Positions 51,615-64,000 are shown, numbered from the stretch's first letter. The stretch is 64,000 nt of DNA from an uncultured Chloroflexia bacterium (GCA_963735455.1 CAVTKZ010000004.1:504758-568757), one strand, 5' to 3'. Numbers and translations are program-made. Notes: generated from the letters alone by a model not told the origin.

Positions 51615-51706
51615 GGAGAGGTCGCATAGTGGCCTAGTGCAGCGGTTTGCTAAACCGCCAAGTGGGGTAACCTGCTTCGAGGGTTCGAATCCCTCCCTCT
51701 CCGCCA
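51615..51706 (+). tRNA. tRNA-Ser(GCU)
   Basis: Anticodon arm GCGGT-TTGCTAA-ACCGC; long variable arm; CCA. Confidence 0.96.
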
Positions 51707-51716
51707 CTCCCGCAAT

Positions 51717-51792
51717 GCGCCCGTAGCTCAGCGGATAGAGCGTTAGGTTGCGGACCTAAAGGTCGTGGGTTCGAGTCCCGCCGGGCGCGCCA
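51717..51792 (+). tRNA. tRNA-Arg(GCG)
   Basis: 76-nt cloverleaf GCGCCCG..CGGGCGC-GCCA; anticodon arm TTAGG-TTGCGGA-CCTAA; GCG at 51750-51752. Confidence 0.93.
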
Positions 51793-57678: not shown

Positions 57679-58863
57679 CTACTCCCCGGGCGCGCCCAGG
57701 AGGAGCAGCGGTTCGCCCAGCTTGCCCGAGTAGATCGGCCGGAAGCGCTCGACGTCGTACATCTTGGGAACGTCCACCGAGCGCGGTGGCACGCCCGGCT
57801 CGGGCAGGTGGGTCTGGGCGTAGCGGCCGTCGCGGATCGCGACCATCCGGCCGCTGACCCCGTCCCGGATCAGGTCCATGGCCACGTTGGCAAAGGTCAT
57901 CGCCACCATCTGGTCGAGCTGGTCGGCCTCCCCGCTGCGCAGGTCGTAGGTCAGCTCGCTGGCCACCGCCTCGATCCCCGTCCGCTTGCGCAGCTCGTCG
58001 GCCAGGACCTCGCCGATGTTCACCTTGTGGCGGTGGCCGAAGGAGTCCGCCTCGCCCCATTCGGCCAGCTTGGCGCCCTGCCAGATCGCGCCCTCGGCGG
58101 TGATCACGAAGGCATACCGGCTGGGGTTGTTGCGCCAATCCTCGGCCAGCAGCTCGGCCAGCGCCGCGAGGTCGAAAGGCGCCTCGGGGATCACGCAGCG
58201 GCCCGAGGCGACATAGGCCGTGAATAGGGCCGTGAAGCCGCAATCGCGCCCGAAGATCCGGAAGACGCCGATGCGCTCGTGGGATCCAAGGGTCGTCCGC
58301 TGGCGGTTGATCAGCTCCTTGGCCCGGGTGATCGCCGTCGAGAAGCCGATGCAGTACTCGGTTCCCTGGACGTCATTGTCCATCGTCTTGGGGATGCCGG
58401 TCAGGGGAATCCCGGCGTCGACCAGGACCCGGGCGAAGCTCAGCGTGTCGTCGCCGCCGATCGCCACCAGGTGGTCGATCCCGAGGGCTGCCACGTGGTC
58501 GAGGACGAGCGGGGTCAGGTCGAACGTGTCCGGGCCGCTCGCATACTGGGCCGCGGCGGCGGGCGTCAGCCAGGGCGGCAGGTTGCGCGTGGCGACCTTG
58601 CGCGGGTTGGTCCGCGACGTGTGCAGCCAGGTCCCGCCGGTCCGGTCGATTGTCCGGGTGTTGGTCCGGTCGAGGGGCCGGATGTAGGCCGGGTCGAGCT
58701 GGGGACCGGGCTGCATGTGGGTCAGCCCTTCCCAGCCGCGCCGAATCCCGAGGACCTCGTAGCCGAGCTCGGTCGAGCGATAGACCACGCCCTTGATCAC
58801 CGAGTTGAGGCCGGGCACGTCGCCGCCGCCGGTAAGGATCCCGATCCGCCGGGTCCGGGTCAT
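57679..58863 (-). CDS. pfkA: 6-phosphofructokinase, PPi-dependent signature
   Basis: TGGGDVPGLN, GGDDT, PKTMDND, FGRDCG. Confidence 0.92.
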   Translation of the reverse strand: MTRTRRIGILTGGGDVPGLNSVIKGVVYRSTELGYEVLGIRRGWEGLTHMQPGPQLDPAYIRPLDRTNTRTIDRTGGTWLHTSRTNPRKVATRNLPPWLTPAAAAQYASGPDTFDLTPLVLDHVAALGIDHLVAIGGDDTLSFARVLVDAGIPLTGIPKTMDNDVQGTEYCIGFSTAITRAKELINRQRTTLGSHERIGVFRIFGRDCGFTALFTAYVASGRCVIPEAPFDLAALAELLAEDWRNNPSRYAFVITAEGAIWQGAKLAEWGEADSFGHRHKVNIGEVLADELRKRTGIEAVASELTYDLRSGEADQLDQMVAMTFANVAMDLIRDGVSGRMVAIRDGRYAQTHLPEPGVPPRSVDVPKMYDVERFRPIYSGKLGEPLLLLGAPGE

Positions 58864-58920
58864 CGTGGTTCGTCCTCCATTGCCTGCGTCATGGGAATCC
58901 TACTCGGCTACCATCCCTCC

Positions 58921-59421
58921 ATGAACTACGAGCTGTTTATGGGCGAGGCACTGGCCGAAGCGGGGATCGCCCTCGAGGCCGGCGAGCGCCCGGTGGCGGC
59001 GGTCGCGGTGGTCAACGATGCGATGGTCGCCCGCGCCCGCGACCGGGTCCGCGAGACGAAGGATCCCACGGCCCATGCGGTGATCACCGCCCTGCGCGAG
59101 GCCGCTCGCCGGCTGGGCCCCGGGGCGCTGGCCGACGCCACCGTGTTCTGCACCCGGGAGCCCTGTCCGATGTGCGTCGGGGCGCTCCTCGAGAGCGACG
59201 TCGGCGCGCTCGTCTTCGCGGTCCCCAACCTGATCGACGGCGCCGCCGGCTCGGTCATCCAGCTGGCCCAGCACGCCGGCCTCCGCCGCCGGCTGCAGGT
59301 CGTCAGCGGGATCCGCCAGGCCGAGGCCGAGGAGCTCTTCGCCGCGCATCGCGCCGGCCGGCCGGCCGGCGCGGACAAGCCCGCCGGCCTGCCTGACGAG
59401 GGGCTCGCGGCTCGGGCCTGA
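58921..59421 (+). CDS. tadA: TadA-like nucleoside deaminase with degenerate active site (HAV in place of HAE)
   Basis: FMGEALAEA, GERPVAAV, DPTAHAV, EPCPMC, GAAGS; syntenic with tRNA-Ser, ffs and dnaX. Confidence 0.85.
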   Translation: MNYELFMGEALAEAGIALEAGERPVAAVAVVNDAMVARARDRVRETKDPTAHAVITALREAARRLGPGALADATVFCTREPCPMCVGALLESDVGALVFAVPNLIDGAAGSVIQLAQHAGLRRRLQVVSGIRQAEAEELFAAHRAGRPAGADKPAGLPDEGLAARA

Positions 59422-59444
59422 AGCGCTTTGGTATCCTCCCCGAC

Positions 59445-59530
<86 letters not shown>

Positions 59531-59594
59531 ACGTTCCCCTGACCGGTCGGTCCCGGGCGGCCGACCACGACCATCGGGCTGATGGTCGATTCCG

Positions 59595-59682
59595 GGAGAG
59601 GTCGCCTAGTGGCCTATGGCGCCGCATTGGAAATGCGGTTCGGGGCAACCCGTCGGGGGTTCGAATCCCCCCCTCTCCGCCA
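59595..59682 (+). tRNA. tRNA-Ser(GGA)
   Basis: Anticodon arm CCGCA-TTGGAAA-TGCGG; long variable arm; CCA. Confidence 0.96.
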
Positions 59683-59771
59683 CGCCTCCGCTCGGCCCAA
59701 GGTCGAGGTCACCCTGGCCCGGCCCGGCAGCCGCAGGCCGGGCGGGACGGTCCCCCTGCTATGATTCGGCG

Positions 59772-60037
59772 GCCGTGCTAGGCGGGGAACTAGCGGTGCC
59801 CTGTACCTGCAATCCGCTCCAGCAGGGCTGAATTCCCTCCCGAGGTCTCCGTTCTCGAAAGCCGCTGTCACGAGCGACGTTGAGGGCCGGGTCCCGCGCA
59901 GCGGCGACTCGTGAACCGTGTCAGGTCCGGAAGGAAGCAGCACTAAGCGATCTTCGCCGAGTGCCGCGGTACGGCCTGGTCCGAGCCGCTTGTGATGGAG
60001 GGCGCGGGGGCGTTCTGATCGACGGGGGGTGCACGGC
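59772..60037 (+). ncRNA. ffs: Signal recognition particle RNA, large bacterial type
   Basis: GCCGTGC..GCACGGC closing stem; Alu-like 5' part; GTCAGGTCCGGAAGGAAGCAGCA domain IV; extended -10 TGCTATGAT upstream; lies before dnaX. Confidence 0.95.
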
Positions 60038-60060
60038 ATATTGCTACCGGTGGACGGCCT

Positions 60061-61878
60061 TTGAACTCGAGCGACCCGCAGCCCAGCACCGCCTCCCTGG
60101 CAGATGCCGTCCCGGCGCCCCACCGCGCGCTGTACCGCCGCTGGCGGGCGCAGACGTTCGCCGAGATCGTCGGCCAGGAAGCCGTGGTCACCACGCTGCG
60201 TAATGCCGTGCGCACGAATCGGCTGGCCCATGGCCTCCTCTTCGTCGGTCCGCGGGGCACCGGCAAGACCTCCCTGGCCCGGATCGTGGCCAAGGCGATC
60301 AACTGCCCCAACGTCCATGACGGCGAGCCCGACGACACCTGCGAGGCGTGCACGGCGATCCGCGACGGTCGGGCCCTGGACGTGATCGAGATGGATGCCG
60401 CCTCGAACAACAAGGTCGACGACATGCGCGAGCTGCTCGAGCGGACCTGGACGGCGCCCTCGGACCTCAGCCGCAAGGTCTACATCGTCGACGAGGTCCA
60501 GCGGATCAAGGAGGGCTGGGACGTCCTCCTGAAGACCCTCGAGGAGCCGCCCGACCACGTCGTCTTCATCTTCTGCACGACCGACGCCAGCCAGATCCGG
60601 CCCGCCGTCCTGTCCCGCGTCCAGCGCTTCGACTTCACCCGGCTGAGCGTCGACCAGATCGCGGGCAAGCTCGACCGGATCCTGGCCGCCGACGGCCGGA
60701 CCGCCGAGCCGGGTGCGATCCAGCTGGTCGCCCGGCTGGCCGCCGGCGGGATGCGCGACGCCGAGTCGATCCTCGACCAGGTCCTGGCCTCGGGCGAGGA
60801 TCCGCTGACCGAGGCGCGGGTCGGCGACCTGCTGGGGCTGGTCGATTCGGAGACCGTCCACGGCTTCCTCGATGCCCTGGTGGGCGGCCGGGCGCTGGCC
60901 GGCCTGGCCGCCATCGACGGCCTGGAGGAGCGCGGCCGGGACCTGCATGTCTTCCTCGACCAGGTCGTCGACGCGGTCCGCCTGGCGCTGACCGGCCAGC
61001 TCGGTGACGCCGGCGCCGCCTGGCCGCTGGCCGACCTTGTCGCCGTTGGCCGGCGGCTGGCGGCGATCGACCCGAGCCGGGCGTCGATCGGTGGCCTCCG
61101 GTTCCAGCTCGAGCTGGCCCTTCTCGAAGGTGCGATGCCGCGGACCCCTTCGGCGATCCCGGTCGCGCCGGTCGCCATCGCAGTCGGACCGACGCCGGTG
61201 GCCGGCTCGCCGGCCAAGCCCGCCGAGCCGGTCAAGCCGGTTGTACCACTCAAGCCCGCTGAGCCGACCGTGCCTGCCCGGACGGGCGAACCGGACGAGC
61301 CGGGCGACCCGGTTCAGCCCGTCGCGCGGAGCTCGGCGCCCGAAGGGGCCGAGCCGCGCGAAGAGCGTGAACCGCCGGCTGCGGCGAGGATCGCGAAGTC
61401 GCCCGGGTCGAGCAAGGTTGCCAAGCCGGCCGAAGCGGACGAGCCCGACGAGCCGGCCGAGCCGGCCTCGGCGGCCGAACCGACCGAGCCGGCCATGCCG
61501 GCCGCGGCCGCCGGAGGCGTGCCGGCCAGCGCCGGCCTGGCCGAGCTGATCGCCGCCTGGCCCCGGATCGTCGCCGAGCTGAGCAGCAGCCCGCCGATCA
61601 AGCCCCTGGTCGAGGCCTGCCGGCCGATCGACATGACCGGCAACCAGGTGATCCTCGGCTTCCCCGAAGGCAAGGCCTTCCTGCGCGATGTCGCCGAGCG
61701 GCGCCGAACCCACCTGGAGGAGGGAATCGGGCGGGTCCTCGGCCGTGCCGTCGCCGTCCGGCTGGTGGCCACCAACCTCGACCTCCTGCCGGCGCCGGCG
61801 GCCGAGGAGATCGACCTGCTGACGATGGCCCGGCGCGTCTTCGCCGAGGACCTGGTCGATGCCGAGGAGGTCCACTGA
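60061..61878 (+). CDS. dnaX: DNA polymerase III subunit gamma/tau
   Basis: LYRRWR..F.EIVGQ, GPRGTGKTS, EMDAASN, LLKTLEEPP, GGMRDA. Confidence 0.95.
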   Translation: MNSSDPQPSTASLADAVPAPHRALYRRWRAQTFAEIVGQEAVVTTLRNAVRTNRLAHGLLFVGPRGTGKTSLARIVAKAINCPNVHDGEPDDTCEACTAIRDGRALDVIEMDAASNNKVDDMRELLERTWTAPSDLSRKVYIVDEVQRIKEGWDVLLKTLEEPPDHVVFIFCTTDASQIRPAVLSRVQRFDFTRLSVDQIAGKLDRILAADGRTAEPGAIQLVARLAAGGMRDAESILDQVLASGEDPLTEARVGDLLGLVDSETVHGFLDALVGGRALAGLAAIDGLEERGRDLHVFLDQVVDAVRLALTGQLGDAGAAWPLADLVAVGRRLAAIDPSRASIGGLRFQLELALLEGAMPRTPSAIPVAPVAIAVGPTPVAGSPAKPAEPVKPVVPLKPAEPTVPARTGEPDEPGDPVQPVARSSAPEGAEPREEREPPAAARIAKSPGSSKVAKPAEADEPDEPAEPASAAEPTEPAMPAAAAGGVPASAGLAELIAAWPRIVAELSSSPPIKPLVEACRPIDMTGNQVILGFPEGKAFLRDVAERRRTHLEEGIGRVLGRAVAVRLVATNLDLLPAPAAEEIDLLTMARRVFAEDLVDAEEVH

Positions 61879-63912: not shown

Positions 63913-64000
63913 TTGTCGGAGAGTTTGATCCTGGCTCAGGATAAACGCTGGCGGCGTGCATGAGACATGCAAGTCAAACGGACGATCAGGGCTTGCTCTG
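63913..64000 (+). rRNA. rrs: 16S rRNA, 5' end (truncated by the window)
   Basis: AGAGTTTGATCCTGGCTCAG at 63920-63939, then AACGCTGGCGGCGTGC..ACATGCAAGTC. Confidence 0.98.

Follow-up and report, generated by a model that had tools for sequence, protein, structure and literature searches.

A TadA-like protein lacking the catalytic glutamate at the tadA locus of Limnocylindria, probably a retained pseudo-enzyme

The tadA-like locus and its protein

The window analysed here is a whole stretch of 64,000 nucleotides from an uncultured Chloroflexia bacterium (GCA_963735455.1 CAVTKZ010000004.1:504758-568757). It contains an open reading frame (ORF) related to the tRNA adenosine deaminase TadA, in which the catalytic glutamate of the HAE motif is replaced by valine (HAV). 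The assembly measures 3.04 Mb in 5 contigs, with 70% G+C, and is 85% complete, which applies to every negative result on this genome; metagenome assemblies were used throughout. Families f1 to f5 of the class Limnocylindria were compared. The genome's own family is f1, and f1 and f4 belong to different orders. The gene and its diagnostic sites are as follows.

58921..59421, + strand: putative TadA-derived pseudo-deaminase gene, 166 amino acids, HAV replacing HAE (stop-free ORF translation)
59074..59076, + strand: His52 codon, zinc ligand (invariant in 47/47 HAV and 74/74 HAE sequences)
59080..59082, + strand: codon 54, GTG = Val, site of the catalytic HAE glutamate, within DPTAHAV
59164..59175, + strand: Cys82-Pro-Met-Cys85, the PCxxC zinc ligands within EPCPMC (C82 and C85 invariant in both sets)

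The stop-free translation confirms the intact 166-residue frame proposed by the original prediction. The protein aligned without gaps to E. coli TadA variants (8e2q) over residues 2-141 (E 9.6e-26). In this alignment Val54 lies opposite the HAE glutamate, and His52, Cys82 (codon 59164-59166) and Cys85 (codon 59173-59175) lie opposite the zinc ligands. The loss of the catalytic glutamate and the conservation of the zinc ligands, both noticed originally, are thus real features of the encoded protein. As for read support at codon 54, a DNA contig of 151 bases (run X2) matches 59078-59228 without differences; this agreement is weak, as the contig starts only 2 bases before the codon.

Against Pfam, the protein matched PF14437 (MafB19-deam) with 82.3 bits and PF00383 (dCMP_cyt_deam_1) with 69.3 bits. 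Its score for the NCBIfam TadA equivalog NF008113 was 101.7 bits, under the 150-bit cut-off, which is reached by 0/61 genomes of the order. The AlphaFold2 model, built from an input alignment of 58 rows, has a predicted local distance difference test score (pLDDT) of 92.2 and displays the cytidine-deaminase fold of the helix-4 division. Foldseek superposed it on TadA crystal structures with template modelling (TM) scores of 0.84-0.85 and root-mean-square deviations of 1.0-1.5 Å. The N-terminus corresponds to helix 1 of the deaminase fold, with no extra domain. The tail (residues 150-166) is modelled at pLDDT 45-53, and its conservation is confined to the genus. Indeed, the stretch at 59350-59418 (residues about 145-166) encodes a tail ending in EGLAARA that is kept within the genus and absent from other genera, whose proteins stop near residue 146-150. 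Close homologues (83-90% identity) are recorded as 'Candidatus Limnocylindrales bacterium' (Chloroflexota), and are labelled 'tRNA(adenine34) deaminase' in one source and 'nucleoside deaminase' in another.

The gene is flanked by the following features.

57679..58863, - strand: phosphofructokinase-family gene, divergent upstream neighbour (TIGR02483, 254.5 bits, below the cut-off of 430.55)
59445..59530, + strand: tRNA-Ser(CGA), 23 bases past the stop of the TadA-like gene (Aragorn, Rfam)
59595..59682, + strand: tRNA-Ser(GGA) (Aragorn, Rfam)
59773..60036, + strand: signal recognition particle (SRP) RNA, Bacteria_large_SRP (RF01854, 181.2 bits)
60061..61878, + strand: dnaX, DNA polymerase III gamma/tau, conserved downstream neighbour (TIGR02397, 342 bits, cut-off 250)

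The gene order is therefore phosphofructokinase-family gene, TadA-like ORF, tRNA-Ser(CGA), tRNA-Ser(GGA), SRP RNA and dnaX. The tRNA-Ser(CGA) arrangement is likewise found 3' of the HAV genes of f4 and of the HAE tadA of f5 and of the f3 genus g54; in family f3, the HAE tadA lies 2-6 kb from dnaX. Thus the ORF occupies the conserved genomic position of TadA, adjoining tRNA-Ser, SRP RNA and dnaX, as originally noted. The -10 element that had been assigned to the gene was not recovered: a consensus scan of 58600-60100 for promoters and terminators gave 0 promoter-like sites and found nothing.

Spread of the glutamate loss, selection and descent

The distribution of the gene was assayed by several searches. 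The protein query matched 22/24 other f1 genomes and 0/16 genomes of f2, its sister family. In a sample of the order, the TadA family model matched 28/30 f1 and 0/30 f2 genomes; in a sample of the class, the figures were f1 22/23, f2 0/4, f3 26/26, f4 26/26 and f5 1/1. From the fetched loci 74 distinct genes were read, 49 of HAV type and 25 of HAE type. The HAV genes comprise 45 from f1, including two frameshifted-looking copies (G003, G004), and 4 from f4; among the HAE genes, 23 are from f3 and 1 is from f5, and the remaining one is an additional copy carried by the f4 genome G153. Another eight loci were retrieved, namely seven weaker matches from the phylum survey described below and the HAV copy of G153. 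The latter (contig C56), the fifth f4 copy, also reads HAV.

None of the 47 intact orthologues keeps the glutamate; 45 have Val at position 54 and 2 have Ile. This residue is encoded by GTG (24), GTC (20), GTT (1) and ATC (2), so that Val54 has undergone synonymous turnover. A word-indexed protein search returned 121/121 close homologues with HAV (117) or HAI (4). A search of cluster representatives of 1.84 billion proteins gave, among the 150 best, 47 query-like HAV proteins, 78 with HAE and 19 that were fragments or unmatched. As the same substitution is conserved across independent assemblies, chance or sequencing error is excluded. The unmatched f1 genomes are accounted for by the state of their assemblies: the whole tRNA-Ser/SRP region is absent in G097 and G105, the contig stops at tRNA-Ser in G080, and the gene is broken by an N run in G021, where it reads DPTAHPV.

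A few copies depart from this pattern. In G003 (L015/L026) and G004 (L020/L027), which belong to the same genus, the HAV gene is seemingly frameshifted; both genomes are 62% complete, in few contigs, and assembly indel errors are not distinguishable from real disruption. The f4 genome G153 holds the HAV gene (L266, C56) together with a canonical HAE TadA of 184.5 bits (L090, C60:1-3415); no ACG or GCG tRNA was found in this genome. The HAE copy looks foreign, given its 3.4-kb contig and its position outside the TadA clade of the class; the contig also holds a tRNA-Ser(CGA). This copy may result from contamination or lateral acquisition. Three cluster representatives (P0152, P0153 and P0161), all single-member clusters, are TadA-like and also lack the glutamate, reading HAV, HAA (first Cys lost, EPTPMC) and HPI. 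P0152 and P0161 fall among canonical TadAs in the tree, and P0153 is outside the tree's sample; these three could represent further dead TadAs or sequencing noise. Unpublished genomes are counted in the figures given here and below (G164 in the HAE set, trees and omega; G190 in the f3 ACG count; G174 and G180 in the f4 GCG count; G185 in the f4 sample), and no claim depends on them alone.

Selection on the gene was estimated with the codon model GY+F3X4, which gave an omega of 0.033 for the 47 HAV genes versus 0.081 for 22 HAE genes of f3/f5. Pairwise ratios of nonsynonymous to synonymous substitution (dN/dS) were computed by the Nei-Gojobori method (NG86). Within the genus (66 pairs), the median dN/dS was 0.075 (0.03-0.17) at a median dS of 0.69. 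The TadA-like gene is under strong purifying selection and is not decaying, which answers the doubt about neutral decay attached to the original prediction.

This selection at the amino-acid level (omega and within-genus dN/dS alike), the synonymous turnover at Val54 and the new invariant residues described below make it highly improbable that the gene is a relic being lost, whose ORF persists through transcription of, or a promoter for, the downstream tRNA-Ser and SRP RNA, or because decay is slow. The short distance to tRNA-Ser(CGA), only 23 bases, would suit such a relic, as would the two frameshifted-looking copies from one genus and the complete loss of the gene in f2 and two f3 species. 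However, the gene is intact across two families of different orders, and the unmatched f1 genomes are explained by a missing region, a contig end or an N run.

A quick maximum-likelihood analysis of 125 proteins placed the f1 and f4 HAV proteins in one clade, with a Shimodaira-Hasegawa-like approximate likelihood ratio test (SH-aLRT) support of 99 and a stem of 0.61. The f3/f5 TadAs form a separate clade (98) among canonical TadAs, outside the HAV clade. The dnaX tree has the topology (outgroups, ((f3,f5), (f4, (f1,f2)))). Support for (f1,f2) against the rest is 99.1, and that for f4 with f1+f2 rather than with f3+f5 is 92.9 and 37.3. Because of this tree, a single switch in the ancestor of f1, f2 and f4, followed by loss of the gene in f2, is the simplest history; the species order rests on one marker gene, dnaX.

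The long separate branch of the HAV clade, which is not sister to the f3/f5 TadAs, could also be that of an old paralogue or of a TadA-like gene gained by horizontal transfer, with no past role in editing the tRNA-Arg of this lineage, and in G153 an HAV copy does coexist with an HAE TadA. We consider this origin unlikely. The neighbourhood of the gene (tRNA-Ser(CGA), SRP RNA, dnaX) equals that of the HAE tadA in f5 and f3, and a shift in function would be expected to leave a long stem. Moreover, second matches in f3 score only 26-61 bits, mostly in frames of 350-490 amino acids, and none is HAV-like in strength, while the HAE copy of G153 is foreign-looking.

Arginine tRNAs and the loss of inosine decoding

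The tRNA substrate of TadA was then considered. Two tRNA genes of the window are relevant.

51615..51706, + strand: tRNA-Ser(GCT), conserved neighbour of tRNA-Arg(GCG) in f1, f2 and f4 (Aragorn)
51717..51792, + strand: tRNA-Arg(GCG), anticodon loop UUGCGGA (Aragorn; Rfam tRNA, 70 bits)

The tRNA-Arg(GCG) lies 7 kb upstream of the TadA-like ORF and stands in place of the tRNA-Arg(ACG) of other bacteria. Over the whole assembly, Aragorn detected Arg tRNAs with the anticodons TCG, TCT, CCT, CCG (at C3:202291) and GCG, and no tRNA-Arg(ACG). The Rfam tRNA model confirmed 44 tRNAs, all five Arg tRNAs among them, and none of these 44 carries A34. 'tRNA-Gly(ACC)' and other odd-length calls made by Aragorn were not confirmed by this model; the assembly therefore contains no A34 tRNA. 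Arg codon usage is CGC 36%, CGG 43%, CGA 7% and CGU 4%, a mix that tRNAs with G34, U34 and C34 can read. The replacement of ACG by GCG and the abandonment of inosine decoding by the lineage, as originally proposed, agree with these data.

The Arg tRNAs and the TadA state were compared between families.

f1, HAV: best Arg tRNA match GCG in 58/61 genomes (TCG, TCG and CCG in the other three); 0 ACG in 70 loci read
f4, HAV: GCG in 26/29 genomes; 0 ACG
f2, no gene: GCG in 23/30 genomes; 0 ACG
f3, HAE: match in 8/29 genomes, with ACG in 6, GCG in 1 (G122) and TCG only in 1

Thus loss of the HAE motif co-occurs with tRNA-Arg(GCG) across families, in f1 and f4 versus f3, as the original prediction anticipated. 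In the alignment, the anticodon loop is UUGCGGA in all GCG tRNAs and CUACGRA in ACG tRNAs.

Within f3, the genomes G122 (97% complete; L190/L229) and G154 (86%; L230) carry a tRNA-Arg(GCG) in the slot occupied by ACG in their relatives, adjoining tRNA-Arg(TCG). The sole NF008113 matches in these genomes are weak (47 and 41 bits). In G122 the 9.9 kb upstream of dnaX hold no tadA remnant; in G134, of the same genus, tadA precedes dnaX by 3.2 kb. The GCG tRNAs of G122 and G154 resemble those of f1 and f4 in the U32 loop and the anticodon stem, and differ in these from the ACG tRNAs of their congeners. This likeness could reflect convergence of the extended anticodon or lateral transfer. In another f3 genome, G140 (89% complete), ACG is present and no TadA was found.

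The survey was extended to the phylum. Among 151 Chloroflexota genomes at least 85% complete, 38 had an NF008113 match at E <= 1e-15, and no such match was found in 113. The 38 include 12 of canonical strength (147-175 bits; f9, f19, f26 and f28) and 14 HAV genes of Limnocylindria. Seven weaker matches, considered as possible HAV genes, were rejected: all proved to be HAE deaminases, guanine-deaminase-like or of other kinds. tRNA-Arg(GCG) was present in 5/5 TadA-less genomes, each from a different family, so that this tRNA without TadA is common in Chloroflexota. TadA-bearing genomes of the phylum had ACG in 4/5 cases, the fifth giving no Arg match. One of the TadA-less genomes with tRNA-Arg(GCG), G237 (L264), and also G212 (L267), encode a distinct deaminase-fold protein with the motifs HAELNALL and VEPCxMCLGA.

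tRNA-Arg(GCG) without an active TadA is the majority state in the sampled Chloroflexota, and the retained pseudo-enzyme is the unusual part. The original prediction had singled out the pairing of the two changes, and this distinction holds for the retained protein only. Other lineages have made the same tRNA exchange. According to a review (PMC8007984), the ACG species is replaced by tRNA-Arg(GCG) in the Thermotogae and Spirochaetes sequenced, and Mollicutes are a studied case of this replacement (PMC3711424). In Mollicutes, as here, tRNA-Arg(GCG) and tRNA-Arg(UCG) replace tRNA-Arg(ACG) (Yokobori et al. 2013, PMC3711424). However, as that paper describes them, Mollicutes lost tadA outright together with tRNA-Arg(CCG), and their genomes are reduced and AT-rich. 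In contrast, the present genome has 3 Mb and 70% G+C, has kept tRNA-Arg(CCG), and has kept a tadA descendant under selection. We found no publication that describes a bacterial TadA without activity or the loss of TadA from Chloroflexota, although the loss map of PMC6063277 may already show the latter; nor did we find a description of TadA absence paired with tRNA-Arg(GCG) in Chloroflexota.

Residue changes and a probable non-catalytic role

Residues were compared between 74 HAE TadAs and 47 HAV sequences. Conserved in both sets are D48, P49, T50, A51, H52, A53, E80, P81, C82, M84, C85, G87, A88, G107 and A108. Two positions switched, from E54 to V and from Y76 to F; position 54 is Glu in 74/74 TadAs. 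Other positions conserved in TadAs were relaxed or replaced.

N41: 74/74 TadAs; in the HAV set D 35, E 5, N 3 and R 3; Asp in the window protein
K/R105 (basic, before GAAGS): 68/74 TadAs; in the HAV set V, R, I or E; Ile in the window protein
N122: 61/74 TadAs; variable in the HAV set; Arg in the window protein
H123: 64/74 TadAs; R in 40 of the HAV set; Arg in the window protein
F143 and F144: 69/74 TadAs each; variable in the HAV set
R148: 69/74 TadAs; variable or gapped in the HAV set

The further departures first noticed by eye (Asn41 to Asp, the basic residue before GAAGS to Ile, Asn-His to Arg-Arg) are therefore also seen against the 74 HAE TadAs. Iyer et al. (PMC3239186) list as shared derived characters of TadA/Tad2 a strand-2 Asn, a basic residue after strand 4 and a Phe in the first C-terminal helix. 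All three are lost here; EPCxMC and the glutamate preceding strand 1 remain. His57, Lys111 and Phe149 (E. coli numbering) belong to the region contacting the anticodon loop according to PMC3711424, and the lost residues include ones that this paper places at that contact. The HAV proteins have also acquired constraints of their own, at N2, E4, L5, A29, A34-M35-V36-A37, R63, T74, L97, A109, Q114-L115-A116, S129 and I131.

We therefore interpret the gene as the positional descendant of tadA, probably converted to a pseudo-enzyme and kept for a non-catalytic binding or scaffold role. Constraint following a long stem, an intact and presumably inert zinc site, lost recognition residues and new invariant positions together argue for a change of function rather than decay. 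The catalytically dead zinc fold of the original prediction stands as far as the zinc ligands and the Val or Ile at position 54 (47/47 orthologues and 121/121 homologues) are concerned. From the loss of the glutamate and the precedent of ADAT3, we infer that A34 deamination is no longer performed. In ADAT3, as reported in PMC8216470, the glutamate is likewise replaced by valine, the zinc triad is kept, the subunit is inactive and tRNA determinants are lost.

The events may have taken the following course. In the common ancestor of f1 and f4, tRNA-Arg(ACG) would have been replaced by tRNA-Arg(GCG), which together with the UCG and CCG tRNAs would read all four CGN codons without inosine. The catalytic glutamate of TadA would afterwards have changed to valine. 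The protein would have kept the cytidine-deaminase fold and the His/Cys/Cys zinc site, while losing the proton-shuttling glutamate and the TadA-conserved residues (strand-2 Asn, basic 105, Asn-His, Phe-Phe...Arg). It would have gained invariant positions at the N-terminus (N2, E4, L5), in strand 2 (A34-A37) and in the Q114-L115-A116 loop, and would be maintained as a zinc-stabilised protein with a binding or scaffold role, its ligand being either RNA or protein.

Alternatively, the protein might still be an enzyme, its zinc pocket deaminating or hydrolysing a new substrate with another acid/base such as Asp/Glu41. The glutamate is kept by 74/74 canonical TadAs, the same Glu-to-Val change accompanies inactivity in ADAT3 (PMC8216470), and the genome has no A34 tRNA. 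Retained activity would accord with the invariance of the zinc site, DPTAH and EPCxMC, with very strong purifying selection, and with an acidic residue in place of Asn41 in 40/47 sequences. However, position 41 is Asn, Arg or other in 7/47, including Arg in 3/4 aligned f4 sequences, hence there is no invariant acid at this site. Altogether, we regard an active enzyme as improbable.

By analogy with ADAT3/ADAT2, the protein could also be the inactive subunit of a heterodimeric deaminase. It shares the Glu-to-Val change with retained zinc ligands, and Foldseek matched the predicted model to ADAT3 chains at a TMq of 0.77. This arrangement is nevertheless very unlikely: no second cytidine-deaminase-fold gene was found in the assembly, where PF00383 and NF008113 each match only the TadA-like ORF, other HAE deaminases are only sporadic in f1, and the ADAT3-type N-terminal domain is missing.

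Several observations weigh against a conserved non-catalytic role, or limit it. Inactivity itself is argued by analogy, and the acidic residue found at the invariant-Asn41 site (Asp 35, Glu 5 of 47) could supply a carboxylate. The absence of any match in 30 f2 genomes, together with the two f3 GCG species without TadA, indicates that the protein is dispensable in some relatives. With regard to selection, NG86 values over all pairs, which are saturated, are 0.29 for HAV and 0.32 for HAE genes, and omega from long GC-biased trees may be distorted by saturation. In f4, the motif was read in 5 genes only, the rest being assigned by score alone (105-128 bits). The median isoelectric point is 5.2 for HAV proteins and 5.6-5.9 for TadAs, so the former are more acidic. 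Finally, expression is barely documented: RNA-library contigs cover parts of the ORF at low depth and come from relatives. For the sequencing runs, the best shares of the stretch's sampled words were 0.29 and 0.25, and none reaches half. This run and RNA-contig evidence is too weak for a claim of expression or habitat.

The original prediction also suggested a new RNA-binding or regulatory role. An RNA ligand is possible, but the RNA-binding role has no direct support, because the proteins are more acidic than TadAs and have lost TadA-conserved residues, including some that PMC3711424 assigns to the anticodon-loop contact.

Compared with TadA of E. coli (1z3a), S. aureus (2b3j) and B. subtilis (7cph), the window protein shares the fold, a gapless alignment at 35-39% identity, the zinc ligands, the DPTAH and EPCxMC motifs and the genomic neighbourhood. 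Unlike these enzymes, it has Val or, in orthologues, Ile at the catalytic glutamate, lacks Asn41, basic 105, Asn-His and the C-terminal Phe-Phe...Arg, and scores 101.7 bits for NF008113, below the cut-off of 150; its genome has no tRNA-Arg(ACG) substrate. The likeness to ADAT3/Tad3 consists of a TadA-derived domain with the proton-shuttle Glu changed to Val, His/Cys/Cys kept and tRNA determinants lost (PMC8216470, PMC3239186). However, ADAT3 has an active ADAT2 partner and an N-terminal tRNA-binding domain, and its C-terminus caps the zinc (PMC8216470), whereas the window protein has neither an active paralogue in the assembly nor an extra domain. Moreover, unlike the organisms that carry ADAT3, the Limnocylindria lineage has given up I34 altogether. 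The Glu-to-Val change arose independently in bacteria and in ADAT3.

The ADAT3 precedent, taken without a partner deaminase or added domain, points to a stand-alone bacterial pseudo-TadA with a binding role. A fuller account seems to us evenly poised between right and wrong. It holds that this is the first stand-alone bacterial pseudo-TadA, a convergent counterpart of ADAT3 without a partner. Its fold would have been recruited to non-catalytic binding with a reshaped surface, before the split of the two Limnocylindria orders, and loss of the glutamate was possibly selected against off-target A-to-I editing. TadA reportedly edits mRNAs in E. coli; the loss of the glutamate may thus have been favoured to silence such editing after the tRNA substrate had disappeared.

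The case bears on annotation. Surveys of tRNA modification equate the presence of a homologue with function, an assumption stated in PMC6063277; here the homologue is present and the deaminase function is almost certainly gone. It is also a natural experiment on the fate of an essential editing enzyme once its only tRNA substrate disappears. The fates seen are outright loss, in f2, two f3 species and most sampled Chloroflexota, or a conserved putative pseudo-enzyme, in f1 and f4. That ADAT3 shows the same Glu-to-Val change suggests that a zinc pocket which is inert yet stable is structurally favoured. As the protein is small and easily expressed, its activity, zinc content and partners are directly testable.

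Further observations concern the surroundings of the gene and other tRNAs. In the f2 genome G108 (L200 1576-2970), tRNA-Arg(GCG) and tRNA-Ser(CGA) are separated by only about 1.4 kb, which hold a 3-hydroxyisobutyrate-dehydrogenase-like gene and a 135-residue ORF; the phosphofructokinase and tadA-like genes are missing there, f2 being a streamlined sister family of f1. At the end of the window (63913-64000), a 16S rRNA begins at 63913 and runs off the window, the contig ending about 640 bases further. Neither tRNA-Ile(GAU) nor tRNA-Ala(UGC) was found in the assembly. These two tRNAs typically lie within rRNA operons, and the rRNA operon of this genome is probably unassembled.

The genome (G000) carries a tRNA-Ile(UAU) at C3:350488-350563, which scores 73.1 bits with the Rfam tRNA model, and just two CAU tRNAs; loci of relatives are L278 (G007) and L279 (G094). 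ATA accounts for 0.4% of Ile codons. The lysidine synthetase TilS (TIGR02432) was not found in the genome; its family matched 0/17 f1 and 0/3 f2 genomes, against 19/19 f3, 20/20 f4 and 1/1 f5 genomes. Lysidine thus seems to have been dropped by the whole order, while the lysidine enzyme is present in about 98% of bacteria according to PMC6063277. Among the cluster representatives, six long proteins of 431-589 amino acids (P0176, P0185, P0214, P0252, P0228 and P0247) have a C-terminal HAE TadA domain. Five of them (P0176, P0185, P0214, P0252 and P0247) start with a TilS-like PP-loop and appear to be fusions of both wobble-modifying enzymes.

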